Position numbers and translations under genes: made by a program
Part shown: piece after piece, positions 7,101-46,733 of the stretch
How the letters are laid out: every line of letters starts with the position of its first letter
Position numbering within the stretch: position 1 is the stretch's first letter
Notes under the pieces: model-generated
Told to the model about the DNA's origin: nothing
Databases searched by the model: none
The model's input: the letters and a program-made list of their open reading frames with translations, nothing else
Source of the DNA: an uncultured Candidatus Peribacteria bacterium
GTDB lineage: Bacteria > Patescibacteriota > Gracilibacteria > Absconditabacterales > Absconditicoccaceae
Assembly: GCA_964586005.1 (NCBI GenBank)
Contig: CAZPFR010000001.1
Coordinates: forward strand, 39,185-86,493
Length of the DNA stretch: 47,309 bases
Direction: 5' to 3'

Positions 7101-7940
7101 TCCTATTGCTGAAGCAAATCATCAAGGAGTTATTTCTTTGTTGTATACCAAAAATAATGTATACTCTTTTTGAAGTCTGATGTTTGTTTCTAATTCATCG
7201 TCTATGTTATCAAAGAAAATTGCTGGATAATTATTGATAATATTCTCAACGTATAGTGGTTGTTTATTTTCTTTCTTTGCAAAAGCTTTATGTGAAAATC
7301 AACGTCTATCTTTTCGTTCTTGTACATTATTTCATGATTGAATAATGCTATTTGATTTATTTGCATCAAACCATGCTTCTAAGTTTTCTACATCAATAGG
7401 ACTATCTATTTCTTTTATTTCTATTGTAATATCTCAAGTAATTTCTTGAACATCTCAAGTGATTTCTTGAACATCTCAAGTGATTTCTTGAACATCTCAG
7501 GTTATTTCTTGAACATCTCAAGTAATTTCTTGAATATCTCAGGTTATTTCTTGAACATCTCAAGTAATTTCTTGAACATCTCAGGTTATTTCTTGAATAT
7601 CTCAAGTAATTTCTTGAATATCTCAGGTTATTTCTTGAACATCTCACGTAATTTCTTGGATGTTTCAAGATAAATTATCGTTTTGTTCGTCGTTTATATT
7701 TTCATCTTTGTTAATTATTTCATTTGTGTAAGTTTGAATTATTTCATCTTCGGTTATTATCGTTTGATCTCCAGTTTGAGCAAACATCGAATTTACAACA
7801 TAATATAGCCAAAATCCCAATACAACAAGACAAATATGCATATAACTTAAAAGTATATGTTTATGTTTATTTGCCAAATGTCCACTTTTGTGAATTAGAC
7901 TTCTGGCATTATGAATTATAAAATGTCTTGTTTTTCTCAT
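1107..7940 (-). CDS. giant (2277 aa) membrane-anchored multidomain surface/adhesin-like protein
   Basis: ATG 7940 to TAG 1107-1109. Every in-phase triplet was checked by hand: no TAA/TAG, many TGA. The track ORF 3141-3386 is in the same phase. Motifs seen: TM HICLVVLGFWLYYVVNSMFA; 11x (V/I)QEITGD. Three LamG-type domain ends: GGYIAEILIYDRGLSNYEI, GSIDEVRIYNKTLTNQEIQNLY, GMLDDVRIYNKTLTPSQVYNLY. PG-binding-like LIGDLQKFLYRYGVYNGEINNTYDQRTIEAIYQFQ (~6330-6540). DNRLRE-like ...KITSAKLRLS...SKEYGTIGERPMLTLTY (~3370-3990). Ig-like Big_5-type ...AFRDIAGNSFPG..WKFTT (~3030-3360). FN3-like RYYYKIQAINSAGES (~2440-2700). C-terminal WxL-like domain (~1107-1480). Confidence 0.85.
7431..7661 (-). repeat. 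11 tandem 21-bp in-frame repeats inside the giant gene
   Basis: Plus-strand unit atctcaagtaatttcttgaac x11, with variants at 3-4 positions. On the coding strand this is GTTCAAGAAATTACTTGAGAT = heptad (V/I)QEITGD. The Gly of every heptad is a TGA codon. Confidence 0.95.
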
Positions 7941-24949: not shown

Positions 24950-25014
24950 CGTCTTTTTTTTCATTTGGTGTTGATTTTTTGTTTTAAAAATTTATAAGAG
25001 AACGCCTTCTGTGG

Positions 25015-25087
25015 GCTCTTGTAGTTCAACGGGATAGAACAACTCTCTCCTAAGGAGTAAATACAGGTTCGAGTCCTGTCAGGGGTA
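25015..25087 (+). tRNA. tRNA-Arg (anticodon CCU)
   Basis: 73-nt cloverleaf folded by hand. Acceptor GCTCTTG/CAGGGGT (3 G-U pairs), D arm GTTC-AACGGGATA-GAAC, anticodon arm ACTCT-CT[CCT]AA-GGAGT, variable AAAT, T arm ACAGG-TTCGAGT-CCTGT, discriminator A. CCA is not encoded. Confidence 0.8.
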
Positions 25088-25164
25088 ATCTATTTAAATA
25101 CGTGCTATAACGGTTTAACCATCTGTTAGCTTTGTATTTGTTTTTATATTTTTATTCTATTATT

Positions 25165-25410
25165 ATGGTTGTAAAAAAAGAAAAAACAGATTTTAGAAGA
25201 CATGAAAAAGATACATGATCTCCTGAATATCAAATTTCTTTGTTGTCTGATGAAATTAAAATGTTACAAGAACATTTACAGTTACACAAAAAAGATTTTG
25301 ATGCAAAAAGAAGTATTCTTAAAAAAGTTGCAAAAAGAAGAACTCTTTTGAGATATTTGAAAGAGAAAAACATTGAAATGTATATGAACGTTTCAAAAAA
25401 ATTCTGAATT
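25165..25410 (+). CDS. rpsO: 30S ribosomal protein S15
   Basis: 81 aa: ...RRHEKDTG(TGA)SPEYQISLLSDEIKMLQEHLQLHKKDFDAKRSILKKVAKRRTLLRYL. This matches the S15 signature DTGSPEVQ ... HKKD ... RR.LL.YL. Confidence 0.9.
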
Positions 25411-25456
25411 AAAATTTAATTAAAATAACACTTTTTATTTTTTAACGTTTTATTTT

Positions 25457-26653
25457 ATGACTGCAAAAAATGTTGCAGAAAAAAAAGTTTCTGCTAAATT
25501 TTCTGTGCCTTTAATCAAAGAAGGGCAAAAAGTTAAATGAATAGTTTTGAAAAAAATTGGTAATGGAGTTCTTGTTGACTGTGCTAACTCTGCTTTTACT
25601 GGAGTTATTCTTTCTAAAGAAGTAAAAGAATTAGAAAGATCAGGTTATGATTTAGCTCCAGGTAGAGAAATAGAGCTTGAAATAGTTAATCCTAGTATTA
25701 GACATGAAGATTGATATTATATTGTTTCTATTACAAAATTATTACAATATGATGTTTGGAAAGCTATTTTGAAAAAATTTGAAGATGATGAAATTATTAC
25801 TGTTATTCCAACAGAAGCAAATCTTGGAGGTTTGTTAGTTGATATGCACGGTATTAAATGATTTGTTCCACTTTCTCAATTGGCGCCAATTCATTACCCA
25901 AGAGTAGAAGATTGAGATCAAGAAGCAATTTTTGAAAAATTATTGGATCTTATCGGTAAAGAACTTAGAGTAAGAATTATTAACATTGATGAAGAAGAAA
26001 AAAGAATTATTCTTTCTGAAAGAGAAGCATTGAAAGAAGAAAGAGAATCTGTATTGAAAGAATTAGAAGTTGGAAAAATATTTGATGGTGTAGTAAGTGG
26101 TGTTTCTTCTTATGGATTATTTGTAACTATTTGAGGAACTGTTGAATGACTTGTTCATATCTCAGAAATTACTTATGGACATGTTAATAATATTGATAGA
26201 CTTGGTAAGATATGAGATAAAATTCAAGTAAAAGTTATTGGTTTAGAAAATGGAAAAATATCGTTATCTAGTAAAAAACTAAAGAACGATCCATGGACAG
26301 AATTACCAAAACAACATAAAGTAGGAGATATCCTTGAATGAGAAATTATTAGATATGTTCCTTATGGAGTATTTATTAGAGTATTTGATGATATCAATGG
26401 GTTGATTCACTTGAGTGAACTTTCTCACAAATCTACACAAAATCCAAATGAAGTAGTTAAGTTATGACAAATAGTAAAAGCTAAAATTATTTTGTTGGAT
26501 CCAAAAAATAGAAAAATTGGTCTTAGTATGAAAGGGGTTAATGAACCATTACCTGAAACTCCTACAGAAAAACCAGCTGTAAAAAAAACTGTTTCATCAA
26601 AAAAATGACTTGAAGATATTGTTAAAAAAATAGCAACAGATAAGGAAGATTAA
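25457..26653 (+). CDS. rpsA: 30S ribosomal protein S1 (four S1 domains)
   Basis: 398 aa. Repeated S1 motifs: GQKVKGIVLKKIGNGVLVD, GGLLVDMHGIKGFVPLSQL, GKIFDGVVSGVSSYGLFVTIGGTVEGLVHISEI, GDILEGEIIRYVPYGVFIRVFDDINGLIHLSEL. It includes track ORF 25943-26134. Confidence 0.88.
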
Positions 26654-26671
26654 TAGAATATAATGGAAAAG

Positions 26672-26704
26672 GACTCAAATTATTATGATTTGGGTCTTTT
26701 TTTT
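26672..26704. terminator. bidirectional terminator between rpsA and dus
   Basis: Stem GACTCAAAT / ATTTGGGTC (one G-U pair), loop TATTATG, then T8 (26697-26704). An A-rich run sits on the other side. Confidence 0.65.
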
Positions 26705-26712
26705 AAAATTTT

Positions 26713-27663
26713 TTAGATATTGAAAAAATCTAAGATATTCTTTTTGATATCTTGATATTCTTTTATCTCGTTACATCTCACTTTAAATTCTTTTGAACCA
26801 GGAATTCCTTTGACATAAGAATATAGATGTTTTCTAAATTCAACGAGTGAATATTGAAGCATCTCTTCTGACTGATTTTTCTCTTTGATAAGTTCTATAT
26901 GTTTTATAATTGTTTCCAATTTTTCTGATGGGGTGGGGTGATGATGGGTGAATATCCAGGGGTTTCCGATGGCGGCTTGTCCTATCATCACCCCATCGAG
27001 ATTTTCTCTCATCTGTTTAATTTGTTCGTAATTTGTTATACCTCCATTTCCAATAATTATTTGGTTTGGTAAATGTTCTTTGAGATTATAAATAAAATTT
27101 CGATCTGGGTTTGGTCAATATCATTGGGCAGTAGTTCTTCCGTGAATAGTTATCATATCAACATAAGGACTAGCCTGTAATAAAAATTCAGTCTGATTTA
27201 TTTTATCTTGTTCGTTTGTGCCTGTTCTTGTTTTGATACTAAATGGCATATCGGTTACTTTTCTTATATTTTCGATAATTTCTAATGATTTTTGTTTGTT
27301 TTTGATAAGTTCTGCTCAACCTCAACTTTTCATTACATTATTTGCAGGGCAGCCCATATTTAATTCGATTCCTCTGAAACGATTTTTATATTTTTTATTG
27401 AGTATTTTAGCTGTTTCTATAAGTGTTTCTTGGTTTCCACCAAATATTTGAACAATAAGATTTTTCTGATTAGGGGTTGTTTCCAAATGATGAATTACTC
27501 CTTCAGGATTACGAATAAATCCATCTGCTGTCATAAATTCTGTCCATAGAAAAAAATCATACTGATCTTTTTGTCAGTATTGGTCTCGGATTTCTTGAGC
27601 TATACAGCGGCATGCTGCATCAGTAAATCCATCCATTGGAGCTAGTCAGAGTATTGGTTTCAT
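26713..27663 (-). CDS. dus: tRNA-dihydrouridine synthase
   Basis: 316 aa: MKPILG(TGA)LAPMDGFTDAACR ... IELNMGCPANNVMKSG(TGA)G G(TGA)AELI ... ITIHGRTTAQG(TGA)YG(TGA)PNPD ... DGVMIGQAAIGNPWIF. It joins track ORFs 27322-27534 and 26713-27012. Confidence 0.9.
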
Positions 27664-27843
27664 TATATTGTTCTGAATAATTATTTTAATAAACAATAAA
27701 TGTACCATAGTTCGCTGTTTATATTTCTTAACGGTAAAAATTTACAAACAAACCGGCTCCATGTATTTTTACCTAAAATATAAAATGCTTACTTATGTTA
27801 TTTATTGTTTATATATTATAGTTAATTCCTCATTTTTTTCAAT

Positions 27844-27869
27844 GAAAAAAGCCCTGGCATTACCAGAGC
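27844..27869 (-). terminator. rho-independent terminator after the small ORF
   Basis: Minus-strand RNA GCUCUGG-UAAUG-CCAGGGC followed by U6 (plus stem 27851-27857 / 27863-27869, A-run 27845-27850). Confidence 0.6.
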
Positions 27870-27893
27870 TTTTGACAATAATGTTGTGCTTGA

Positions 27894-28028
27894 TTATTTG
27901 TCGTATTTTTCAATCGCATATTTGCGTGTCATGTATGCAACGGGATTTTTCATTGCAAGAATGTTTAATGCGGCTAAATATGCGTTAGTGTCCTTTAGAA
28001 ATGTAGCATTGGGAACATCAGAAGGCAT
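27894..28028 (-). CDS. small hypothetical protein (44 aa from ATG 28028; 64 aa if TTG 28088 is used). Coding status is uncertain.
   Basis: MPSDVPNATFLKDTNAYLAALNILAMKNPVAYMTRKYAIEKYDK, TAA at 27894-27896, with its own terminator. The region is locally more GC-rich than its surroundings. The upstream YYLRMP segment weakly resembles a ribbon-helix-helix strand. Confidence 0.3.
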   Translation of the reverse strand: MPSDVPNATFLKDTNAYLAALNILAMKNPVAYMTRKYAIEKYDK

Positions 28029-28127
28029 TCTCAAATAATAGGTTTTTTTTTCTTTGTAAGCTGTTCTTGAAAATGGAAAACTAAACAATACAAAAAAATC
28101 AGATTTTAATTTATATATTTGTATATT

Positions 28128-28577
28128 ATGAAGGTTGTTATTTTGGAAAATATACGTAGTGCTTATAATGTTGGAAATATTATTCGTACAGCTGATGCTT
28201 TGTGATGGAAGGTCTGGTTGACCGGTTATACACCATCTCCCTTAACTGTTCCTAAAGTAAAAAAAACTTCACTTGGAGCAGAAGAAACAGTTGATCTTCA
28301 ACAATTTTGATTCACCAAAGAAGCCATAGATGTGGCTAGAAATAAGTGACTTGTTGTTGTTGCGGCAGAGATAACAGATCATGCAGTACCTATTGACATG
28401 TATACTATTTCTAAAGATGGTATTGCTGTTATTTTTTGAAATGAAGTTGAGGGTGTTTTACAAGAAACACTAAAAAATGTTGATGATGTCGTCTTTATTC
28501 CTATGTCTTGAATAAAAGAATCTTTGAATGTTGGTCAAAGTTCTGCTATTATTATGTGGCAATTATGATTGTTGTAG
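28128..28577 (+). CDS. SpoU/TrmH-family RNA 2'-O-methyltransferase
   Basis: 149 aa: MKVVILENIRSAYNVGNIIRTADALG(TGA)W ... IAVIFG(TGA)NEVEGV ... VFIPMSG(TGA)IKESLNVGQSSAIIMW. Confidence 0.85.
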
Positions 28578-29159
28578 TTATCTTATTTTTATTGTTTTGA
28601 TGATGTTTTCTATATCTTTTTCGTACATTTTGAATGTTTCTTTTGTTGCTGTATAACTTATTATATATGCTAAATTATCTTTTAATATCAATGTTTGTTC
28701 TTGTTTTATAGTATTTTGTTCTTGATTGAAAGAATATGTTATTTTCTTTGCTGGAAAATTGTCTATTTCTTTATCTTCTTCGTTTTCTATTTGAAAATTT
28801 TCTCCTATATTATTTATCATTTTTTTGTTTTCTTCGTATAAATTTTTTAAACTTGTTCAAGATTGCACTAAATAAACAAGAAATCCTAAATTTTCTCTTG
28901 TTGCTTTTTCTTCTGTTTGTGGTGCAAAAAATATTACTGTAGATCAATAAATATTTTCTTTGAATGTTCGATTTCAAGGGAAACTTAATTTGAATCTATA
29001 TTGTTTGTTCTCATAATTATTTATGTTTGATTTTTTTTCTGTAATTTGTTCAATTTGGTTGTTTCAGGAATTTTCCTGAATTGTATTTTCTGGTTGCTTA
29101 TTACATCCAGATAGTACTATAACCAGAATTCACAATGAAATAATGATTTTCTTTGACAT
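28578..29159 (-). CDS. lipoprotein (possibly a PsbP/DcrB-like fold)
   Basis: 193 aa: MSKKIIISLG(TGA)ILVIVLSGCNKQ (lipobox LSGC). It includes track ORF 28578-28820. It starts 11 nt downstream of the CYTH-methyltransferase stop. Confidence 0.65.
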
Positions 29160-29170
29160 AAGAATATATA

Positions 29171-30439
29171 TTATAAAGTAAAAATATTTTTTTTGGCTAT
29201 AAGTATCGTGTTATTTGCAGTTTTCCATGTGTTTGTTACTTCTCATTGTTTGTTTGTATATATTAATTTCTCTATTAATAGTCAACTTTGTATACATATT
29301 TTTTTAAGCTCTTTTTTGGTAAATATATGATAAAATCTATAATATGTTTTGTTTTTTGATTTTCGAGGAATAAATAAATTATTTCGTTCATTATTATTTG
29401 GATTTATTAATTTTTTCAAAAAACTTTTTAAGATTATTTTTGTATAATTTTTTATCATTCGTAATGAAAATGATCGATTTGTTATTATTGTTACTCAACC
29501 ATATCTTAATGCTCTATATATAAGTTTCATAATTAAAAATCTTTGCTTTTTATTTGTTAAATGCTGAATACTTGCTATACCTACTATTATATCTATTGAT
29601 TCTTGTTTACACTTGGATAAATAGCCTATCATATCATCACAAATAAATTCTGTTTTAATGTTTTTTTGTGGTATTTGATTTTTTTTTGCTTCTTCTAATA
29701 TATTTTCAGATAGATCAATTCATGTATAATTAATTATTTTGTCTTTAATTACTGTCAAATGTTCCAATAATCTTCAGCTTCCACATCATAATTCTACTAT
29801 TCTTATTTGTTTTTCTGGGTAAGATGCAATGGTATTTATTATTATATCAGCATCATTTCGATATTTTTTTCTTGTTTGACTATATTTTAAAGCTTCTTGG
29901 TTATAAAATTCTTTAAGTTGAAAACGAATTATTATATCTTGGTATTTATTTTTTTTAATTAAACGATTCATTCAATGTTTTGCTAAAAAGCTATTGTTTC
30001 CTTCTTTTTGGTTTGTTATTTCTTTATAACATCGTTCTGGCGGTATAAATTTTTCACTTTCTCTTACTGATCAAAATTCTATTTCAGCGATTCGTAGTCA
30101 TTCAAGATTATCTTCAAACTTATTTATTTCAATATTATACCCTTTGTAAGGGTAAAAATAACGAGTTTTTTTGATCTTTTCGGTTGTAATATTTTTTCGA
30201 TACTCAATAAAATCTTTTTTATTTATTGTTTTTTCAAATTCTTCTCTTACTAATCCTTTCCCTTTTTTTCTTGTTAAAAAATATTTTTTTTGTGTTTTAC
30301 CCTTTTTTTTTGTAATAATTTCTCTTACTCTAATCTTTTTTTTATCGATTATTGTATATCATTGTAAAATTTCTTGTTGTTCACAAGTACTTATATCTGG
30401 AATGTTATTTATTAAGAATTTTCTTTCTATTTCTAACAT
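29171..30439 (-). CDS. fusion protein: N-terminal CYTH (triphosphate tunnel metalloenzyme) domain plus C-terminal class I SAM-dependent methyltransferase (Trm9/Methyltransf_11-like)
   Basis: 422 aa, translated block by block without a stop. CYTH: MLEIERKFLINNIPD ... QGYTI ... RVRE ... YNIEINKFEDNLEGLRIAEIEF. MTase: IRIVELG(TGA)CGSG(TGA)RLLEHL (motif I), IDLSENILEEAKK, IIVGIASIQHL, RALRYGGVTII, and a tail LFIPRKSK..TYYRFYHIFTKKELKKICIQSGLLIEKL...NTWKTANNTILIAKK. Confidence 0.8.
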
Positions 30440-30453
30440 GATTTATGTGCTAT

Positions 30454-31353
30454 TTAAAATAAACTTGTTTCTTGATGATTTGTTTCTTTTTCATTTTTTT
30501 CTTTTGTATTAGATAATTTAAGAAAATCTTCTTCATCAAATATTTTTTCTTCGTTTTCTATAAATATTTTTTTGAAATGTATTAAATATAATGTTAGTAA
30601 AGCTGTCATTCTTACATCGTTTTTACAGTATATTTTGAATTCTTCTAAATATTTTAAATCCTTTGTTTCTTGATATTTTTTCCATAATGTTTCTCATTCC
30701 GCTCATGATTCTAATGTTTTTTGTATTCCAACCAATGCACTTGCTACTTTATTTAACCCTAATCTTTTTCCTGTCAGTTTATTTAAAAATACATATAAGT
30801 CTATGCTTTTGTCGTTTATCTCATTAAGATCTTCTTCTGTTTTTCAACAATTGTATATACATACAGGATTATCAAACCATATGTTATTATATCATATAAT
30901 ATATCAATCAAAATCAATCATTTTTTGTACAAATTCAGTCAGATTGTTTTGATCTATATATTCATATTCCATTTTATTGTTTTCTGCTGGATACATTGCA
31001 TATCATAGTAAAAATTTAGCATCTTTGATGTCATCACTTAATGTTGTTTCTATATCATATACCATATAAGGTTTGTTATTTATTGTTGAATAAGCTCCTG
31101 ATGAAAATTCGTCCATAAGTATTTGTTCAATTGTTTTTTGTCCTGTTTGTTTTTCTTTTTTGATTATAAAATTTTTGATTATATTATGGAGTTCTTTTTT
31201 GCCTTCTTCATCTATTATTATTTCTATTTTTTCTCTTTCATCTCTTATAATTATCTCATTGTTCTCTGTTTGTGAAAAACTAAATATTATTTCGGATCTA
31301 TTGCAATAATAAATATCTTTACCTTCTCTAAAAATTTTTTTGAAAAAATCCAT
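30454..31353 (-). CDS. DnaQ/RNase H-like fold 3'-5' exonuclease domain protein with ~95-aa N-terminal extension
   Basis: 299 aa, all in-phase triplets checked. Exo I MVYDIETT, Exo II IIGYNNIWFDNPV, Exo III YCKNDVRMT. It includes track ORF 31003-31353. Confidence 0.75.
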
Positions 31354-31453
31354 AATTCATAGACAGCGTTCTTTCTTTATATTGCTATATAAATTTTGTA
31401 TAAAATTATTTTGTATCGATTTTAATTCTTGTAATGAGAACCTTTTGTACATA

Positions 31454-33670
31454 TTATTTTGTGTTTTCTGATGTAAATTTTTGGTATATTATGAATTCTT
31501 CTGGGCTTATTTCTTTTATTGTTTTTAGAGGATCTGATACAAAATTATCAATTTTTATTTTGTTTTCATCGTTTAATGTCAGACTTAAATTCTTTATAAG
31601 AAGGGGTATATTGTTTGAATCTATTTTTTTAAAATAAATTGGTTCTATTTTATGGTCTTCTATATTATAATATCCAATAAAGGAAATTCATTGTATAATA
31701 AAATCAATTAGTACTTTATTGTTTTTTTCTACGATATCTGATACAGTGATTCAAAGAAACTGTTTAACTCTTTCTATAATAATAATACTATTTATAGATC
31801 ATTCTGAATTATTTGATGTTTCTGGAACGTAGGTTAATAGTCATTGAATGATGCTTTTTATAAAGAGAGCAAATTTTTCTTTACTTTGATCAGTGTTTGA
31901 TGTTTGTATTATATTATTTATTATTTTTCTTGCCTCTTCATCTGATACATCTATCTTATTTAAAATAAAATTGTTGTGTAAAAAAGTGATTGTTATAATA
32001 TTATTTTTCCAAAGAACGTCGATATCTATGTTTGTTTTATTACAAGTTTTTAACTCTTGTCTTGGTAAAAGAATTTTAATTGTGGTACATAACTTATTTA
32101 TTTCTTCTTCTTGTATTTCTTGTCCTACTTCTCAGAATAATGTTTTATTTTGTTCTATATATTTTTGTAAATCACTAAAAGATCGTTTCTGAGATGTACA
32201 CAATTTATTTATTGATTCAGTTATTTCAGTAAATCAAATTAATACTATATTTTTTACATATAATGTATTTTTTTCTTCTTCTAAAGTTATTTCTAAAGGA
32301 ATTTTTGTTTCTAGATTCCAATCTCATTCTATTTTTATTGTGTTTCATGAAATTATTTTTTTATTTATGCTTATTATGTTGATTTGTTGGAGTAAATTCT
32401 CAATCAAATTGATTTGATTTTCGTTATTTTGTTCTGTATTGTTTTCTCCTGTGTTAGTAATAATAAAATCATTTTGTAAAATATTTTTGTTTATTTGATC
32501 TTTTAATCAATTATATCCTATTAATTTGTTTCAATTATTTATGTTTATGATTTGCTTTTCTATTTCATTGAGTTCAAATTTATTAGTTATGTTTTTGATT
32601 ATTTCTGTCTTTTGTAGGTTTTCTTTGATATAATAATTATTAAAATAATATATTACTTCCTTATAAAAATTTCAGATTTGATTTCTTTTTAATATTTCTT
32701 GTATAAAACTAAAATATCAGTTTAAACTATCTATATTTAATCTATTATTTTTTATATCTTCGTATATTATTTGTTGAAATGATATTAATTTATAGATATT
32801 TATTTTTTCATTTTTATATATTTTATTACTTATAAATTTGTTGTATAGCTCATTTTGTACATCAATAAAATTTGTAAAAGTAATATAACTGTCTTTGTAT
32901 TCTGATCAACAATTTTCTAAAAAATTTTGAATTGTGATATTTTGACTGTTGGTGTAATATGTATAGTATAATAAATTCTGACACATTTTTTCTTTATGTT
33001 TTTTTTGTTTTATAATATTATTAAATATTGGTTCTATATTTATATTATCTTGTTCTATATTATAAATAAAAAATTCTTTTATAAATTTCTCTGTGAATAT
33101 ATCACAAATTGAATTTGTTATTTTTTTCTCGAATAGACATTGTAAATTAAATTCTTCTATAAGATTTTTATTGATTGGAAATAAGGTATTTAATTTTGTT
33201 TCCTTGGAAATTCATTTACTTCATAAAATGATATTTTTAAAAAATATTGCCATTTCTTCTTTTGTATATGTTCATTTTTGAAAATACGGTAAAGGTTGAA
33301 TAGGTGCTGTCTTCGTTATGCTAAAAAATCTTGGTACAATAAATCATTTATACGTTACTAAATTGTTGTAAGAACTAATAATTTCATTTTCTTCTTGTAT
33401 ATCATCTGTTATTATTTCTCCCGAAAAAAAATATAAGGTATTTTTTTTATTTATTTTTTTAAAAAATTCTTGTATTGTTTTTTGTTTAATTGTATCTAAG
33501 CTGTTTATGTCATATATTAAATTTGCTTGTTTATTTAATATATTGTATATTTTGAATATTACAAAAACTCCTATTATGATAAAAATCCCATAGGTAAATA
33601 GTATTTTATATATTTTTCAATACTTTTTCAGTATTTCTTGAGTCTTTTCTTGTAATTGTTGTTTGTTCAT
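31454..33670 (-). CDS. large orphan protein (738 aa) with an N-terminal TM anchor
   Basis: ATG 33670, TAA 31454-31456. Every in-phase triplet was checked: no TAA/TAG. TM ILFTYGIFIIIGVFVIFKIY. The rest is N/I/K/E-rich with no motif I recognise. Confidence 0.75.
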
Positions 33671-33809
33671 TTTTTATTATTCAAATAATAATTTTGTTCA
33701 TTATACTTTTTTCTTAGTTGTTTTTCAATCTTTAAATTATTGTTTTTTCTATAAAATATAGCAATTCTTATTTGTATTTTTGTTTTTTGTAAAAAAAATA
33801 ATAAAAGTC

Positions 33810-33837
33810 TTGCAAAAAAAGTTTTTTTCTCTATATT
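33810..33837 (+). promoter_or_regulatory. candidate promoter of the repeat lipoprotein gene
   Basis: TTGCAA (33810-33815)-N16-TATATT (33832-33837), about 43 nt upstream of ATG 33880. Confidence 0.4.
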
Positions 33838-33879
33838 GGCCGCGCTGTTAAGTTTTTTATTTTTGTAAAAATTTGTCAA

Positions 33880-34122
33880 ATGAAAAAATTATTGACATTA
33901 AGTGCTCTTGTTTTGACTGTTTTATTAGCTGGATGTGGACAAACTGAAATTTCTGAAGAAGAAGTTGCAGCTCCAGTTGTAGAAGAAGCAGTAGCTCCAG
34001 TTGTAGAAGAAGCAGTAGCTCCAGTTGCAGAAGAAGCAGTAGCTCCAGTTGCAGAAGAAGCAGTAGCTCCAGTTGCAGAAGTAGCTCCAGTTGCTGAAGA
34101 AACTCCAGTTGCACCTCAATAG
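33880..34122 (+). CDS. lipoprotein with tandem EEAVAPV(V/A) repeats
   Basis: 80 aa, intact in the standard track. MKKLLTLSALVLTVLLAGCGQ (lipobox LAGC), then about 5.5 copies of an 8-aa acidic Ala/Pro/Val repeat. TAG at 34120-34122. Confidence 0.85.
   Translation: MKKLLTLSALVLTVLLAGCGQTEISEEEVAAPVVEEAVAPVVEEAVAPVAEEAVAPVAEEAVAPVAEVAPVAEETPVAPQ
33958..34110 (+). repeat. 24-bp tandem repeats (about 6 copies) inside the lipoprotein gene
   Basis: Unit gaagaagcagtagctccagttgca, with copies starting at 33958, 33982, 34006, 34030 and 34054, plus degenerate copies from 34078. The unit is 50% GC in an otherwise very AT-rich window. Confidence 0.95.
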
Positions 34123-34161
34123 TATATTTTTGGTTGCAACTTTTAGTTAAAACTATAAAAG

Positions 34162-34186
34162 AAGTCGATTTATCGACTTTTTTTTA
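34162..34186 (+). terminator. rho-independent terminator
   Basis: AAGTCGA-TTTA-TCGACTT followed by T7. Confidence 0.7.
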
Positions 34187-34201
34187 TTTATCTTTATTAT
34201 T

Positions 34202-34933
34202 ATGAAATTACGTGAATTTTTACAACAACAATGAATATCTAGGAGAACTATTATTTCATATATAAATAATAATCAATTATTTTTGAATTGAGTTATTGTT
34301 CAATCTTATTGATTGGAAATAAAACAAGGAGATTGTATTCATACTGTTGACAAAAAATGGATATATGAAAATATGTCAATATCTGAAAAAAAACAATTTT
34401 TATGTTTTTATAAACCAGTTGGTTGTGTATGTTCTAAATTAGATAAATATAATACGACTATTTATAATTATCTTCCTGAAATATATCATAATCGATATTA
34501 TATAGGAAGATTAGATAAAGATAGTCGTTGACTTGTTTTATTAACAAATGATCCTAAAATAGTTAATGAATATGAACATCCACGTCATTGAATAACTAAA
34601 GAATATCTTGTTACATTAAATAAATCTTTTAGTAAAGAAGATGTAAAACGTTGTTTAGAAGGAATTGAAAATGAAGGAAATATATTAAAAGCTGTTGAAT
34701 GTCAGATTTTTGATGATGTATTGTACGATAAAAATAAAAAATATTTATTGAGTAATTGTGTTAAAAAACCGTCATGTGTAATAAAAATTGTTTTAAATGA
34801 ATGAAAAAAAAGACATATTAGAAGAATGATGAGCTCAATGAGATATCATGTGGAGGATTTAGTGAGAATTCGTGAAGAAAAATTTGAGTTATGAGATTTG
34901 AAAGAAGGTTCTTTTGCTTTGTATGATTTATAA
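34202..34933 (+). CDS. rsuA: rRNA pseudouridine synthase, RsuA/RluB family
   Basis: 243 aa. S4-like MKLREFLQQQG(TGA)ISRRTIISYINNNQLFLNG(TGA)V, catalytic GRLDKDSRG(TGA)LVLLTNDP, then KEYLVTL and EG(TGA)KKRHIRRM. Confidence 0.85.
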
Positions 34934-35020
34934 TTTTATTGATCAGTGATTAGTTTTGTGATCAAGGAAAAACAAAGTCAATTCTTCATCAAAGCAATGT
35001 TGTTGTTTGAATTTACTTGT

Positions 35021-35110
35021 CATTAGAATTGTATTCTTGGTTTGAACTATGATTATGTTGATTTGGTGATAATTTCATTCTTTTATTTATTCCTTTTATT
35101 GCTCGATTTT
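35021..35110. repeat. dispersed intergenic repeat, copy A
   Basis: Aligns with the reverse complement of 18093-18187. It carries the motif CTTTTATTGCTCG at 35093-35110, and a second direct copy lies at 35126-35143. Confidence 0.7.
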
Positions 35111-35223
35111 AAAAGTTATTGTTTGCTCTTTTATTGCTCGGTTTATAGTATTTCACCAATCCAGAACAAACAAAGTTGATTCATCATTATTATTGTATGT
35201 TTATTTATTTAATGATTGTTTTA

Positions 35224-36198
35224 ATGCTTATATATCTCGAACAACAAGCAAAAGAATATCCATTGACGAAAAAAATTTTGTCGAAATTTTCTAATGTGAA
35301 TGTGGTAGAAATCCAGCATTATAAAAATATCTTTGATAAAAAAATAGAGTATAATACCGAAAAATGTCTTATTTTGGCAAAAAGCGATACATTAAAAATC
35401 TTTCCTGTTCCAAAAAATTATGGGTATCAGGATGCGAGGGCTTTTTTCTTTGTTACTCAGCTTAATTGTATTTTTAATTGTAAGTATTGTTATCTTAAAG
35501 GGACTTTTAAAAATACATTTCCAGTTATCTTTGTAAATTATGAGGATATTCAATCAGAACTTAAAAATAAAATTTTAGAGATTAGAAGTACATGATATAT
35601 GGATAAATTAGTGTTTTATGCGAGTAATTATTCTGATTTATTGGGAATGGAAGTGTTGTCTGATTTTCATACGTCATTTATTCCGTTTTTTGATCAATTT
35701 GATAATATCTTGATGGAAACTCGTACAAAATCTTGAAATATTCACTCTCTATTGGATTTATCTTTTATACCTAAAAATACAGAAATTGCATTTTCTCTGA
35801 ATCCTCAATGTATTATTGATCAATATGAACTTGGTTCTTCTTCTTTACAACAAAGAATTTCTGCCATTAAACAATTGATAGAAAAATGATGGAAGGTCTG
35901 AATTAGATTTTTACCACTTTTGCCTGTTCAATGATATTTGGAAATATATGATACATTTCTAGGTGAACTTTGCCAGGAAATTAATATACAGAGTGTAAAT
36001 AGTATTTTTTTAGCGACATTGATTTATAATAAACAGGATTGGTTACTATTACAAAAAAAAGAATCAGATTTTGATTTATTGAAAAATTTAGAAATTGGTG
36101 AGGATTGATTGGTTAGGGTTTCAAAAACAGATAGAGAATTATTTGATTGATTATTTAAAAAATATTTTGGAGATAGGGTAGTTTGGGATTATGTTTAA
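35224..36198 (+). CDS. splB: radical SAM protein, spore photoproduct lyase (SplB)-like DNA repair lyase family
   Basis: 324 aa from ATG 35224; in-frame alternatives are ATG 35197 and TTG 35176. LIYLEQQAKEYPLTKKILSKF, CX3CX2C motif NCIFNCKYCYLKG. It continues through TGA after track ORF 35176-35595 to TAA 36196-36198. Confidence 0.7.
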
Positions 36199-36213
36199 TA
36201 TATAATTTATATA

Positions 36214-36819
36214 ATGGAACAGAAACGAGAAAAATTAATAAAAGTATTTTTGGATAAAAATAAACAGATAAATTTGAGTGCAATTAGGGATGAACAAGGT
36301 GTTTATGATAAGCATATTCGTGATGCTTTGGAAATAAAAAATGTTTTTGATTTGGAATCGGGTATGAACGTATGTGATGTTGGTACAGGAGGTTGATTTC
36401 CTTTGTTGCCATTAGCAATTCAATATCCAAATGTTCAATTTATTGGAATTGATTCGGTTAAAAAGAAAATTGAAGCAGTTTCAGATATTACTAAACAATT
36501 GTGATTACATAATGTTGAACTTTTTTGGAAGAGAGCAGAAGAATGTAAAGAAATGGAGATGTCTTTTGATGTTATTACTGCTAGAGCAGTTGCTTATGTT
36601 GATAAACTTTTGCCTTGGACAAAACATTTATTAAAACAAGGAGGTATTTGGATTTTGTTTAAGCAAGTTGATGAGCAAGAAAGACAAGATCTTTTGCAAC
36701 TTTGTGGGGAGATGAATTTGAAATTAGAAAAGAGATATACCTATAAACTTTTTGAAGGAGATATCGAAAGAGTAATTTATGTAGTGAGAAGGCTTTGATG
36801 AATTTGGAAAATGAGATAA
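36214..36819 (+). CDS. rsmG: 16S rRNA (guanine527-N7)-methyltransferase
   Basis: 201 aa: ...NLSAIRDEQGVYDKHIRDAL...VCDVGTGGG(TGA)FPLLPLAI...DVITARAVA. Under code 25 the ORF runs through two TGA at 36796-36801 to TAA 36817-36819. Confidence 0.88.
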
Positions 36820-36847
36820 TAAATTTATACTTATTAATTTATCATTA

Positions 36848-38377
36848 ATGGATGAAAATCAATTGTTAGTAGATCAGCCACTTTGAGAAAAATTAATTAA
36901 AAAATGATTTTGGTTATATTTTTTCTCGTTTTTGATTGCTCCGGCATCATATTTTATAAAGGTTATTATTTCTAATTCCGTATCTGTTGCTGATGTCGGA
37001 GTATTGTATAGCATTGTTAGTTTGATAATGTTTTTGAATGTTTATAATGATTTATGATTGACTGAAAGTCTTCAATATTTTTTGCCAAGATATTGGATGA
37101 AAAAACAATATAATTATATCAAAACTTCTATTTATTTGAGTTTATTTGTTCAAATTTTTACGGCTTTGCTTATAGCAATTTTTTTGTGGTTTGGTGCTCC
37201 ATGGTTAGCAGAGCATTATTTTCATAGTGATAGTGTAGTGATAATTCTTAAATATTTTTGTTTTTATTTTTTGGGAATAAATCTTTTTCAGATTTTGCAA
37301 AGTATTTTTGTAGCTTTTCAGAGTACTTTTTCATTTCAATTTGTAGAATTTGTTAGGGTCTGGAGCATTGTTTGATTTTCTGTTTTATTTTTTTTTACTG
37401 GTAGACAAAGTATTGAACGATATAGTATTAATTGGGTATTATGATTGATTATATGAATATGTGTTGCAAGTTTTCTGTTTTATAAAAATTATAGAAAAAC
37501 TTTGTTACAAGGAAATCTTGTTTTTGAAAAACCTATGCTCAAAGAATATGTTAATTATTCACTTTGGTGTTTTGTAGGACTTAATACTGCTAATATTTTC
37601 TGACAAATTATTCAACAATTAATTATTGTTATTTTAGGGCCAGAATCAGCAGGATATTATAGTAATTTTATTAGTTTGTTTAGTATATCTGCTGCTATTA
37701 TTTCGCCTATTATGACTTTGATTTTTCCTTTGATTTCAGAATTGGTAATCAAAAAGGATATCATAAAACAAAAATCTTTATACTCATTTTTTTATACCTA
37801 TTTTGGAATTTTTGCTTTTTTATTGGCAAGTTTTTTTGTCGTAACTTGACCTGAAACGGCACTAATTCTTTTTGGTTATAAATTTGTTTTTTCTGGGCAA
37901 CTTTTTTCTTGGTGAATTATTGTTAGTATATTTACAACTTTTGTTAGTTTTAATTTTGCTGTTTTAGCTGGTATGTGAAAAATCAAGGAAAGAGTTAAGA
38001 TGTTACTTATTTCTGCTTGTGTAGTTATTGTTGTTTCTTTAATATGACTAACTACAATCTGAATTTATTGATCAATTTTGGCTTTATGATTGTGATATTG
38101 ATTATTGTTTTTATTGAGTTTTTTATTTCTTTATAAACATCTTCCTTTTTCTATTGATTGGAAATTTATAATAAAAAATATTATAGTAACATCTATATTG
38201 TCAATTGGAGTATGGTTGATAAAATCAGAATTATTTATATTTGATGATATCATGAGATGATCCAATTTATTAAAGTTAATTGGTATTTGATTAATTTTCT
38301 TTTTTGTTTTTATTGGAATTAATTGGAAAAGAGCTATGTTATTGAAAGATGAATTAATAAAAATGAGATCTAATTAG
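36848..38377 (+). CDS. wzx: oligosaccharide/polysaccharide flippase (Wzx-like, MOP superfamily)
   Basis: 509 aa, all in-phase codons checked. About 12-14 hydrophobic helices throughout. It includes track ORF 37058-37375. TAG at 38375-38377. Confidence 0.7.
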
Positions 38378-38445
38378 ATTGATATTGTTAATTAAATTAT
38401 TATTGTTTTTTGAAAAATATTTAAATTCTGATCATATGTCTATTT

Positions 38446-44058: not shown

Positions 44059-44908
44059 GCCATTAATAAGTATATTAGTACCTACCTATAATAGATTAAA
44101 TTATCTAAAAGAGTGTTTAGATAGTATTGTTTCTCAAAAATGATTTTTGAAATCCGATTTAGAATTAATTGTTTCTGATAATTCTGATAATGATGAAACC
44201 AAAAAATTTATGAACCAATATATTAAAGAAAATAATAATTGGGGTATTTATTATAATAAAAACAATAAAAATCTATGAATGGTTTGAAATTGGAATAAAT
44301 TACTAGAATTAAAAAAATGAGAATATTTTATCTTTTTATCTGATGATGATAAATTTTATGATGAAAATAGTTTAAAAATATTATATGATAATTTGATTAA
44401 ATATAATTTGGATGTTTGTTATTGAAGGTATATGTGTATAAATGAATTATCTATATATAGTCAGTTTAAACCCCATAATAAAGTTAATAATAAGGATATT
44501 TATTATGATATTTTTCAAGAACAGATTATTTGACATACAATCTCATTTTGATGAATTTTATATAAAAGTATATGAAAAGTGTATGATGAAAATTTTTGAA
44601 ACTATGCTGATTGGGATTTTAATCTTAATTATTTATATAATTGAAAAAAAATATGATTGATTAATAAATATACTTTTTTATATAAAATTCATACCAATCA
44701 AAATATTAATTCAATTAATGTTTTTTTGGACTATAAATTGTATATATTATGAATGAAAAAATATAAATATAATAAAATAACAAAAAATATATTAATGAAA
44801 ATAATAAAAGTATATCCTATTATGATTATTTTAGATGTAATCAAAAAAATATGATTATACTCTTTTTTTAAAAAAATTGAATATAAAATATGTCAAAAAT
44901 CAGTATAA
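44045..44908 (+). CDS. family 2 glycosyltransferase
   Basis: 287 aa, all codons checked: KPLISILVPTYNRLNYLKECLDSIVSQ...ELIVSDNSDNDET...FIFLSDDDKF. The start overlaps rfbH by 14 nt. Confidence 0.85.
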
Positions 44909-45113
44909 TAACAACAACTTATAATCATAAAGATTTTATAAAAGATACAATTGAAAGTATAATAAATCAATCTTTTTCTGATCGAGAACTTTTGATTTGA
45001 GATGATTCTCCTGATAATAAGACTTGGGATATTATACAGAGTTATGTAAAAAAATATCCAAATAAAATAAAAGCGTGGCATCATCAACCAAATAAATGAA
45101 TAGTAGATAATAT
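44890..45113 (+). repeat. 224-bp segment identical to 45762-45985
   Basis: Base-for-base identity from the ATG of paralog A to the ATG-proximal 224 nt of paralog B (offset 872). The first mismatch is 45114 g vs 45986 a, after which the genes diverge strongly. Confidence 0.95.
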
Positions 45114-45750
45114 GAATTTTTTGCTATCTAAAATAAATTACGCTTCAGAATATGTTGCTTTTTTAGAATGAGATGATATGTACGCAAAAAATAATTTAGA
45201 AGAGAAAATAAAAATATTTAGAAAATATAAAGATGTTTTTTTAGTTTATAGTGATTTTTCTATTATTGATAAACAAAGAAAAACAATTAAGGAAAAATGT
45301 TATGATATTCATTTTCCAGTTCCAAACAATGTTGTTTGTGACTCTTATTTATTTGCTACTTCTCCTATAAATATATTTTCTTATACAAATTGTATGATAA
45401 GAAAGGATATTTTATCTTCTATAAAAATTAGAAATTTAACTTGAAATAAATCGTTTTCTACTTCTGATTGGGATTTTTATTTTCAAATATTAACTAAATA
45501 TAAAAATTATTATATAAATGAGCCTTTATTTTTTTATAGAATCCATTGAAATAATATAACATTAAAAAATAATAATATTTTGTTAGATCTATGGGAAATA
45601 TATTATTATTATATTTCTTTCTGAATTTTTAAAAAAAATAAAATTTTATATATTATTATTAATCCTTTTAAATCAACAATTAAACAGAAACTTAAATTAT
45701 TTGTTGCATTATTTATTCCTATTAAATATATCAAAAAACTTTTAGCCTAA
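44890..45750 (+). CDS. family 2 glycosyltransferase (paralog A)
   Basis: 286 aa, all codons checked: MSKISIITTTYNHKDFIKDTIESIINQSFSDRELLIGDDSPDN...FLEGDDMY. The start overlaps the previous gene by 19 nt. Confidence 0.85.
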
Positions 45751-45761
45751 ATCTTATTTTA

Positions 45762-45985
45762 ATGTCAAAAATCAGTATAATAACAACAACTTATAATCAT
45801 AAAGATTTTATAAAAGATACAATTGAAAGTATAATAAATCAATCTTTTTCTGATCGAGAACTTTTGATTTGAGATGATTCTCCTGATAATAAGACTTGGG
45901 ATATTATACAGAGTTATGTAAAAAAATATCCAAATAAAATAAAAGCGTGGCATCATCAACCAAATAAATGAATAGTAGATAATAT
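45762..45985 (+). repeat. 224-bp segment identical to 44890-45113
   Basis: See the partner feature. The identical antisense track ORFs 44893-45087 and 45765-45959 are a by-product of this repeat. Confidence 0.95.
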
Positions 45986-46733
45986 AAATTTTTTGTTGAA
46001 AATGGTTGATAAAAAATCTGAATATATATCATTTTTAGAATGAGATGATATGTTTGTTTCAGATAATTTGGAAAAAAAATTAAAGATATTTTATCAGTAT
46101 AAAAATATTGCATTAGTTTATAGTGATTTATCTTTTATTGATAAAAATAATCATATTATATTAAAAAGTTTTTTTGATCGAAGAAATATTCCTTTTTTCC
46201 AGAATGAAATTATTTCAATTCAAAAATTTATTTTACAACCAGCTTGACCTATAGCATCATGGAGTACCTGTATGATTAAAAAAACTGTATTGGAGAAATA
46301 TAATGTAATAAGTTTAGAACCATCTAATAAAAAATATTCAGTTTCAGATTATGATTTGTATTTTAGAGTATCTTCTGAAAATAAAGTTTTTGGTATAAAA
46401 GAATCTTTGACTTTATATAGGAGACATCAATGAAATTTGTCTTGAAGTAATTGATGAACTTCTGATGATTTAGAAAAATTAATAGATTATTATTATAAAC
46501 AAAAAATAATAAATATATCTTTATACGGTAAAAAAAAATCTTGGACCAATATAGTTTCTGTTATATTTGCTCTTGAAGCTTGAAATAAAAAATCAGCATT
46601 AAAAAAATATATAAAATCATTTAAATATTGATTTTTATCATATCCTTTGTTTAAAATAGCTATTCTTTGATTTTTTATTCTACCTACAGTAATAAATAGA
46701 AAAATTCTTAATTTTTTTATTAAGAGAGGATAA
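45762..46733 (+). CDS. family 2 glycosyltransferase (paralog B)
   Basis: 323 aa, all codons checked. The first 74 residues are identical to paralog A, then ...INFLLKMVDKKSEYISFLEGDDMFVSDN... Confidence 0.85.

Follow-up and report, generated by a model that had tools for sequence, protein, structure and literature searches.

The window, a stretch of 47,309 nucleotides (nt) from an uncultured Candidatus Peribacteria bacterium of the SR1 (Absconditabacteria) group (contig CAZPFR010000001.1), contains a gene that joins a CYTH (triphosphate-tunnel) domain to a Trm9-type methyltransferase dependent on S-adenosylmethionine (SAM). The architecture appears to be undescribed, and our full-text literature searches found no description of a CYTH-methyltransferase fusion. 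Both halves are from known families, with no new fold or chemistry. Our best estimate is that the two intact enzyme domains act side by side, one in Trm9-like ester methylation of tRNA and the other in triphosphate hydrolysis; the probability of this reading is put at about 55%. The gene and its parts are as follows.

29171–30439, minus strand: CYTH-methyltransferase fusion gene, 422 codons plus a TAA stop (29171–29173), which needs TGA to be read as Gly and CGA as Trp
29975–30439, minus strand: CYTH/triphosphate-tunnel domain of the NeuTTM subtype, amino acids (aa) 1–155, from phmmer, profile and Foldseek
29915–29974, minus strand: helical linker, aa 156–175, from the AlphaFold2 (AF2) model of the orthologue P0002
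29174–29914, minus strand: Trm9-type class I SAM-dependent methyltransferase domain, aa 176–422, from Pfam (Methyltransf_25/11/31), profile, hhalign and Foldseek

Reading frame and codon reassignment

Under the standard bacterial code, the frame of the fusion gene is broken by 10 TGA codons (aa 27, 114, 123, 156, 218, 222, 240, 315, 386 and 399), and the listing of open reading frames (ORFs) yields just a 61-aa piece; these stops rule out the standard-code reading. An earlier reading of the DNA from its letters alone (the sequence-only reading) had described the ORF as continuous. This holds in the Absconditabacteria/Gracilibacteria code (table 25) and fails in the standard code, since TGA had silently been taken as Gly. 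The Gly reading is nevertheless correct, because TGA occupies glycines of the methyltransferase motif I (VEL-G-CGS-G-R), and because the TGA codons of the window genes mostly stand opposite GGA, GGT, GGG or GGC in 43 ortholog pairs of the syntenic region. The window has a GC content of 26%, and long ORFs emerge throughout once TGA is a sense codon. The linker codons contain neither a stop nor a frame change between the two domains. In the database, this protein appears as P0001, in a code 4 translation.

The fusion gene also contains eight CGA codons (aa 81, 116, 136, 194, 322, 327, 352 and 359) and one TGG. In the Absconditabacteria, CGA and CGG were predicted to be read as Trp (Shulgina and Eddy, PMC8629427). 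In the CGA columns of seven orthologous genes, CGA and CGG swap with TGG and never with AGA. In the 43 ortholog pairs, the CGA codons of the window are found opposite CGA (53 times), TGG (15) and CGG (2), which accounts for 70 of 73 positions; no case opposite AGA, AGG, CGT or CGC was found in these pairs (genes at about 25000–38400). The TGG codons of the window stand opposite CGA 21 times. Moreover, the non-recoded relatives have a genuine Trp at the columns where the fusion gene has CGA. The eight residues are very probably Trp in the real protein. They had been read as Arg from the sequence alone, a reading that the ortholog columns overturn with TGG swaps and no Arg codons. The plain code 25 was rejected for this gene, being wrong at the eight CGA codons; and since CGA very probably encodes Trp, the public translations with code 25 or code 4 would be wrong at these sites.

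The codon usage of the window shows some other features. The CGG codon is rare in the syntenic genes (about 25000–38400) and behaves as a Trp codon like CGA. Among the Arg codons of the window, AGA strongly predominates (291 versus 36 AGG). The sole tRNA gene found in the window by the Rfam scan is a tRNA-Arg(CCU), which reads AGG (25015–25087, plus strand).

N-terminal CYTH domain

The N-terminus had been assigned to CYTH from short motifs, and the assignment is confirmed by sequence, profile and fold. Residues 1–153 match NE1496/NeuTTM (2fbl, 3typ) in the phmmer search of the Protein Data Bank (PDB) sequences, with an E-value of 8.9e-12. A profile of nine CYTH-domain sequences matches 2fbl at E 1.3e-28; NeuTTM is the only PDB sequence family matched by this profile, and the Cet1-type enzymes are unmatched. 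Foldseek analysis of the P0002 model retrieved 2fbl/3typ at target template modeling scores (TM-scores) of 0.70–0.73 and 30–32% identity. The AF2 model of P0002 contains an eight-stranded barrel (strands 2–10, 21–32, 35–46, 49–62, 65–72, 89–99, 102–109 and 117–123). All of the motifs quoted in the sequence-only reading, for both halves, are found in the protein (MLEIERKFL, RVRE, LEGL.IAEIEF, VELGCGSGR, LFIP.KSK, YYRFYHIFTKKEL and NTW). The main tunnel motifs are as follows.

30419–30433, minus strand: ExExK signature E3-I-E5-R-K7, start of the metal- and phosphate-binding tunnel; E3 and E5 in 22 of 24 fusions, K or R at position 7 in 23 of 24
30323–30331, minus strand: RxR motif R37-V-R39, both AGA codons, basic residues for the beta and gamma phosphates by the criteria of PMC8233210
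30077–30085, minus strand: acidic ExE motif E119-I-E121, C-terminal part of the tunnel; invariant in the nine-sequence domain alignment and opposite VEVEF of NeuTTM

The ExExK signature is the hallmark of the CYTH superfamily (PMC8233210). The tunnel residues R37, R39, K58, R65, K91, R93, E67, E69, E119 and E121 are conserved and align to those of NeuTTM. The catalytic dyad of NeuTTM is Tyr28/Lys52; Y28 and K58 align to this dyad, and 23 of the 24 fusions retain them. Overall, the catalytic residues of the domain are kept in 22–23 of the 24 fusions. Two tryptophans of NeuTTM are matched by CGA codons in the CYTH domain.

Two specialized subtypes of the superfamily have their own signatures. 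The class IV adenylate cyclases have HF four residues before ExExK (HFxxxxExExK) and a small residue for the central Arg, and the thiamine triphosphatases have W/YxRxR (PMC8233210). The cyclase determinants were not found: no HF can precede ExExK, because this motif begins at residue 3, and R37-x-R39 is intact. W/YxRxR is also missing, with K35 here and N, S, T or D in the homologues. Since both signatures are missing, the domain would be a plain triphosphatase-type tunnel enzyme.

One member of the fusion lineage, P0015 (Logan contig, 2186 bp), carries the substitutions E3I, E5K, R37K, R39K, K58N and E121I in its CYTH domain, which may be a pseudo-enzyme. The methyltransferase residues of P0015 are intact, and this protein rests on one short contig.

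C-terminal Trm9-type methyltransferase

The Pfam scan of the C-terminal domain returned generic class I methyltransferase models alone. The family profile matches Yarrowia Trm9 (5cm2_Z) at E 1.7e-14, and this is the sole top match aligned across the whole domain. The comparison of the methyltransferase family with Yarrowia Trm9 by hhalign gave a probability of 99% and E 6.5e-18, and 5cm2_Z also has the best target TM-score in Foldseek analysis of the P0002 model (0.80, rmsd 3.4). Three family members are labelled TRM9 by the JGI pipeline. The label "Trm9-like" in the sequence-only reading seems well founded, given these profile and fold matches, the JGI labels and the equivalents of eight essential residues of the enzyme.

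Yeast Trm9 is inactivated by mutating any of R29, D72, H116, W145, W168, R241, Y243 and N271, and the inactive mutants include W145A (PMC4678810). The equivalent residues in the window protein are R190 (R29), D242 (D72), H293 (H116), W322 (W145), W359 (W168), R368 (R241), Y370 (Y243) and N410 (N271). Across 40 homologues, the eight positions show little or no variation; ELGCGSGR and D242, the acidic residue after strand 2, are invariant. With CGA very probably read as Trp, W322 and W359 would be present, and therefore all eight essential residues would be matched. The family motifs are located as follows.

29858–29875, minus strand: T189-R190-K-K192-Y-W194, equivalent to TRYKPW of Trm9; T, R and K invariant in 40/40; W194 from CGA, with W in the non-recoded relatives
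29771–29794, minus strand: SAM-binding motif I ELGCGSGR, seen in the sequence, with G218 and G222 encoded by TGA
29561–29566, minus strand: Q292-H293, equivalent to H115-H116 of Saccharomyces cerevisiae Trm9 (ScTrm9); invariant in 40/40
29474–29476, minus strand: codon 322 (CGA), putative Trp equivalent to ScTrm9 W145; CGA/CGG swaps with TGG, stands opposite W156 of Yarrowia lipolytica (Yl) Trm9 in BLASTP, and falls in TNWNL of the non-recoded relatives
29363–29365, minus strand: codon 359 (CGA), putative Trp equivalent to ScTrm9 W168; TGG in RAAC1 and L009, opposite Yl W179, and IPW in the non-recoded relatives
29327–29338, minus strand: R368-F-Y370-H371, equivalent to R241-Y-Y243-H of Trm9, the carboxylate-holding motif; R, Y and H invariant in 40/40
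29210–29212, minus strand: N410, equivalent to ScTrm9 N271, proposed for uracil-ring recognition; in 39/40 sequences and invariant in a second alignment with non-recoded relatives

Around N410, the BLASTP alignment places ANNTILIAKK opposite KDNWWVVAKR of Yarrowia Trm9.

Linker and two-domain model

The predicted two-domain model is confident. The AF2 model of P0002 has a mean predicted local distance difference test score (pLDDT) of 91.6 and a predicted TM-score (pTM) of 0.85. Helices are predicted at residues 150–156, 159–165 and 168–192, with pLDDT of at least 87 in the linker. The stand-alone methyltransferases start at about profile position 166.

Distribution and origin of the fusion

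Besides the window protein, 24 further full-length fusion homologues were found in independent samples; they have 418–429 aa and are 45–64% identical. One of them is encoded in the complete genome of SR1 bacterium RAAC1_SR1_1 (CP006913.1). The fusion is therefore not a product of chance or assembly. Another protein, P0154 (418 aa), was considered as a second kind of fusion and rejected, as its N-terminus looks like a mistranslation. The full-length fusions form about 25 protein clusters at 90% identity. Among 1.84 billion representatives clustered at 50% identity, the fusions make up 4 or 5 clusters and the stand-alone methyltransferases (245–290 aa) well over 100.

An orthologue is present in about 50 species representatives of GTDB, labelled SR1, Absconditabacterales, Gracilibacteria or Peribacteria. 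Only three of them have the CYTH extension (RAAC1_SR1_1, L014 and UBA5124), and these belong to one subclade. In the sister lineages, the orthologous locus is occupied by stand-alone methyltransferases without the N-terminal 165 residues, and no CYTH-coding sequence was found within 4 kb of these genes (about 47 loci). Stand-alone CYTH proteins, 40–46% identical to the fused domain, are present in SR1 assemblies that hold a stand-alone methyltransferase, such as GCA_026397515.1 (CYTH P0231 and methyltransferase L019) and GCA_026397395.1 (CYTH P0235 and methyltransferase L017). Their genes are located on other contigs, after an unrelated gene for an uncharacterised surface protein of about 390 aa, a context that is uninformative. 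Since the methyltransferase occurs alone at the same locus and the CYTH gene elsewhere, the fusion is derived and joined two pre-existing genes in one subclade.

The Trm9-like methyltransferase family is found across the Patescibacteria. It also occurs in their non-recoded lineages, so a family confined to UGA-recoded lineages is ruled out. As judged from these sequences, the methyltransferase is the older and widely conserved component of the fusion. As a separate observation, the lineage offers another case in which a tRNA-handling enzyme carries a phosphohydrolase-type domain (PMC3812714).

Proposed function and alternative explanations

The methyltransferase most likely transfers a methyl group from SAM to the carboxyl of a side chain on a wobble uridine of tRNA, of the 5-carboxymethyluridine (cm5U) type, and would thus form a methyl ester. 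In the Trm9-like pocket, R190 and H293 would position the carboxylate, which R368 and Y370 may also contact; W322 and W359 would stack on bases, and N410 would read the uracil. The CYTH tunnel most likely binds triphosphate between the basic residues R37, R39, K58, R65, K91 and R93 and the metal-binding E3, E5, E119 and E121, and the Y28/K58 dyad would hydrolyse the triphosphate group. The substrate may be inorganic triphosphate, or a triphosphate linked to a nucleoside or to RNA. The two activities would operate side by side, through co-expression and shared localisation on RNA, and not in one reaction sequence.

Several points weigh against this reading. Domains whose fusion is conserved tend to be functionally linked, and the side-by-side action offers no explanation for such a link. 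The structure model is that of an orthologue, P0002, which is 63% identical to the window protein. The Pfam model PF01928 (CYTH) gave no match to the window protein at E up to 10. In the PDB profile search and Foldseek, PH0226, MM_2633, 3dtn and 3sm3 have E-values similar to or better than that of Trm9; the Foldseek list is headed by METTL6, and both METTL6 and 3sm3 have slightly better E-values than Trm9. To our knowledge, 5-methoxycarbonylmethyluridine (mcm5U) is unreported in bacteria. In the published literature, we found nothing on Elp3 in bacteria of the Candidate Phyla Radiation (CPR) or on wobble modification in SR1.

The Pfam result is taken as low sensitivity of the model, given the match to NeuTTM at E 1e-28. 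PF01928 scores the orthologues at 20.1–20.5 bits, under its cut-off of 23.2 bits, and neither Pfam nor NCBIfam gave a usable match for the CYTH half of the window protein. Because the CYTH half falls below the Pfam threshold, methyltransferase domains are all that the precomputed annotations show. The failure of profiles on the CYTH half had been named as the outcome that would speak against the domain call. It did occur in part, with PF01928, but it is overridden by the evidence from PDB sequences, profile and fold.

A serious alternative, albeit an unlikely one, is that the CYTH domain is mainly non-catalytic. It would either hold on to phosphate or RNA or stabilise the methyltransferase like the platform that Trm112 provides for eukaryotic Trm9, helping the enzyme to keep its RNA substrate, with hydrolysis secondary or absent. 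P0015 keeps the domain despite the loss of the glutamates and most arginines, with the methyltransferase intact. The pTM of the P0002 model suggests a fixed inter-domain arrangement, and the eukaryotic and archaeal Trm9 enzymes require a partner protein. However, every catalytic residue, including Y28/K58, is retained in 22–23 of the 24 fusions, which would not be expected of a module that only binds. Most of the related methyltransferases also do without any CYTH domain, and the evidence from P0015 comes from one short contig.

It is rather unlikely that the methyltransferase acts on an acceptor other than tRNA, such as a carboxylate of a small molecule or protein, or another nucleophile, and that its likeness to Trm9 reflects shared chemistry. 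Generic class I methyltransferases of other or unassigned function score like Trm9 by E-value, and no bacterial mcm5U is known to us. However, Trm9 alone aligns over all the family motifs (TRxKxW, QH, NW, IPW, R[FY]YH and the C-terminal N), and the matched residues were proposed to bind the uracil ring and the neighbouring bases (PMC4678810). The conserved nuclease-like neighbour and the nearby tRNA/rRNA modification genes also speak against such an acceptor.

A bolder idea, to which we attach a low probability, takes the fusion as a Rosetta-stone clue that NeuTTM-type CYTH enzymes work on RNA, and that wobble modification is gated by the triphosphate state of the tRNA or its precursor. The tunnel would then bind or trim the triphosphate on the same tRNA or precursor whose wobble uridine is esterified by the Trm9-type domain. 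The targets could include tRNA-Gly(UCA), the UGA reader of the recoded bacteria; in animals, ALKBH8 acts on the comparable tRNA-Sec(UCA).

The sequence-only reading had drawn a speculative parallel with cap formation. In a pathway of this kind, the two domains would act in sequence on the RNA 5' end; the CYTH domain would trim the 5'-triphosphate, leaving a processed end for the methyltransferase to methylate. Triphosphate-tunnel triphosphatases do start the capping of eukaryotes and giant viruses. The capping enzymes of giant viruses and African swine fever virus (ASFV) are among the Foldseek matches (7d8u, and also 1ri1), with long but poorly superposed alignments, and by our own inference the chemistry of methylating a phosphate oxygen resembles that of methylating a carboxylate oxygen. 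The parallel does not hold up well and seems improbable. The protein has no guanylyltransferase domain, for which the 20-residue linker leaves no room, and the CYTH profile matches NeuTTM alone and not the Cet1 type. The methyltransferase retains the uridine- and carboxylate-specific residues of Trm9 and not a cap N7 pocket; the cap methyltransferases 1ri1 and 7d8u are generic class I fold matches, weaker than Trm9 and without the family motifs. Moreover, the methyltransferase stands alone in most lineages, where the stand-alone CYTH gene has an unrelated context.

It is very improbable that the N-terminal domain is a class IV adenylate cyclase, by which the protein would link cyclic AMP (cAMP) to methylation. 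NCBI and JGI name the orthologues "adenylate cyclase", including that of RAAC1, and cAMP binding by the tRNA methyltransferase TrmD has been reported (PMC5217690). However, the start of ExExK at residue 3 makes the HF motif impossible, R37-x-R39 is intact, and NeuTTM, the nearest relative to have been characterised, shows no significant activity as a cyclase. The name given to the RAAC1 orthologue in the databases is probably wrong.

The explanation of the fusion as an artefact, in which an error of sequencing or assembly merged adjacent genes or real stops are read through, could point to the 10 stop codons in the standard-code frame, but it has practically no chance and is already refuted by the recurrence and codon data: all 10 stops are TGA, several at conserved glycines, the linker is free of stops and frame changes, and the 418–429-aa architecture is found repeatedly, in 25 clusters whose samples are independent and include a closed genome.

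Gene neighbourhood

The fusion gene lies in an apparent operon of four genes, spaced 1–14 nt apart from 33670 to 28578. Its other members are as follows.

31454–33670, minus strand: first gene of the apparent operon, 738 aa, no detectable family; orthologues of 723–750 aa at the same position
30454–31452, minus strand: RNase_H_2 (PF13482) DEDD-type exonuclease-like gene, 332 aa, 14 nt upstream of the fusion gene; Pfam E 5e-14
28578–29159, minus strand: DcrB/PsbP_2-like lipoprotein gene, 193 aa, 11 nt downstream of the fusion gene; syntenic

In about 50 of some 56 orthologous loci (L001–L061), distant ones included, the methyltransferase gene is immediately preceded by the RNase_H_2-like gene, and the pair persists where the remaining synteny is lost. 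This suggests that the two proteins are a functional pair. The RNase_H_2-like protein has the motifs DIET, FDNP and YCKND, like a DEDD exonuclease. It has no match among the PDB sequences, and a weak match to the C-terminal region of the RecB-like TM0106 family. The best promoter-like site (33728–33700) is upstream of the 738-aa gene; its position is suggestive, while the overall number of such sites is at chance level. The Rfam scan of the window found no riboswitch or leader near the operon.

The conserved gene order comprises a pseudouridine synthase, the protein of about 730 aa, the RNase_H_2-like protein, the methyltransferase, the DcrB-like lipoprotein, SpoU and Dus. RNA-modification genes near the fusion gene include Dus, a SpoU-type methylase, a pseudouridine synthase and RsmG/GidB (26713–27708, minus strand; 28128–28577, 34202–34933 and 36214–36819, plus strand). 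These genes occupy both strands, and their synteny across the group may be ordinary conserved gene order.

Other features of the window were also observed. A member of the spore photoproduct lyase family of radical-SAM proteins (PF20903; 35197–36198, plus strand) adjoins rsmG and is conserved in RAAC1_SR1_1; such a protein is unexpected in a non-sporulating CPR bacterium. A small predicted lipoprotein (33880–34122, plus strand) has a signal peptide with a Cys and consists mostly of EEAVAPV(V/A) repeats; its gene is followed by a terminator-like hairpin (34157–34184). Two adjacent ORFs (44890–45750 and 45762–46733, plus strand; 286 and 323 aa) share the same first 40 residues (MSKISIITTTYNHKDFIKDTIESIINQSFSDRELLIGDDS) and appear to be tandem copies of one glycosyltransferase-like gene, duplicated within a sugar/polysaccharide cluster. 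A very large ORF (1107–7940, minus strand) encodes 2277 aa in the code-25 reading.

Implications and comparison with known systems

The fusion bears on three questions. Firstly, its conserved link to a predicted RNA-modification enzyme gives a concrete partner for probing the physiological role of the bacterial CYTH/NeuTTM triphosphatases; annotation based on Pfam is blind to this join, since the CYTH half scores below threshold. Secondly, a Trm9-type methyltransferase with a seemingly complete catalytic pocket is widespread in the Patescibacteria, which points to a possible mcm5U-like wobble modification pathway in bacteria. Thirdly, the gene provides protein-level support for the predicted CGA-to-Trp reassignment, as CGA is found on tryptophans essential in Trm9 and conserved in NeuTTM.

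The closest known system for the N-terminal half is NeuTTM (NE1496, 2FBL/3TYP), a specific inorganic triphosphatase of Nitrosomonas europaea, which is in the same similarity cluster as CthTTM. The two domains are about 30% identical over the whole 150 residues and share ExExK, RxR, the Tyr/Lys dyad, K..R, ExE and two tryptophans. NeuTTM and its many bacterial relatives consist of this domain alone, at about 150 aa, whereas here the domain, known from sequence, is the N-terminus of a methyltransferase.

The methyltransferase domain of Trm9/ALKBH8 (5CM2), which converts cm5U34 to mcm5U34, has the fold, the eight essential residues, TRxKxW and R-Y-Y-H in common with the C-terminal half. The fusion protein differs in its bacterial host, in inserts at about aa 326–350 and at 395–408, in a Gln for H115, and in the fused CYTH domain. 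The nearest relatives of this half are the stand-alone Trm9-like methyltransferases of the Gracilibacteria, other Absconditabacterales, Peregrinibacteria, Falkowbacteria and others, which are orthologues of 30–50% identity. These Patescibacteria enzymes have the same locus after the RNase_H_2-like gene and the same invariant residues; however, CYTH is a separate gene located elsewhere.

The giant-virus/ASFV capping enzymes (e.g. NP868R) combine a tunnel triphosphatase, a guanylyltransferase and an N7-methyltransferase in one chain, and they are the only other polypeptides with a tunnel and a class I methyltransferase that we know of. They differ by the guanylyltransferase between the domains, the Cet1-type tunnel and the methyltransferase for the cap guanine N7. 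Their superposition in Foldseek is poor, with a root-mean-square deviation of 18–22 Å, TM-scores of at most 0.37, and weak fold matches to both halves.

The multidomain CYTH proteins, including YgiF (CYTH-CHAD), the plant TTM1/2 (kinase-CYTH) and the HD and exopolyphosphatase fusions, likewise combine CYTH with a second domain. However, their partners all belong to phosphate or nucleotide metabolism, and none is a SAM methyltransferase. The 2021 survey of the CYTH superfamily listed fusions to HD, exopolyphosphatase, kinase and CHAD domains and none to a methyltransferase (PMC8233210), in agreement with the earlier remark that the pairing is unusual.

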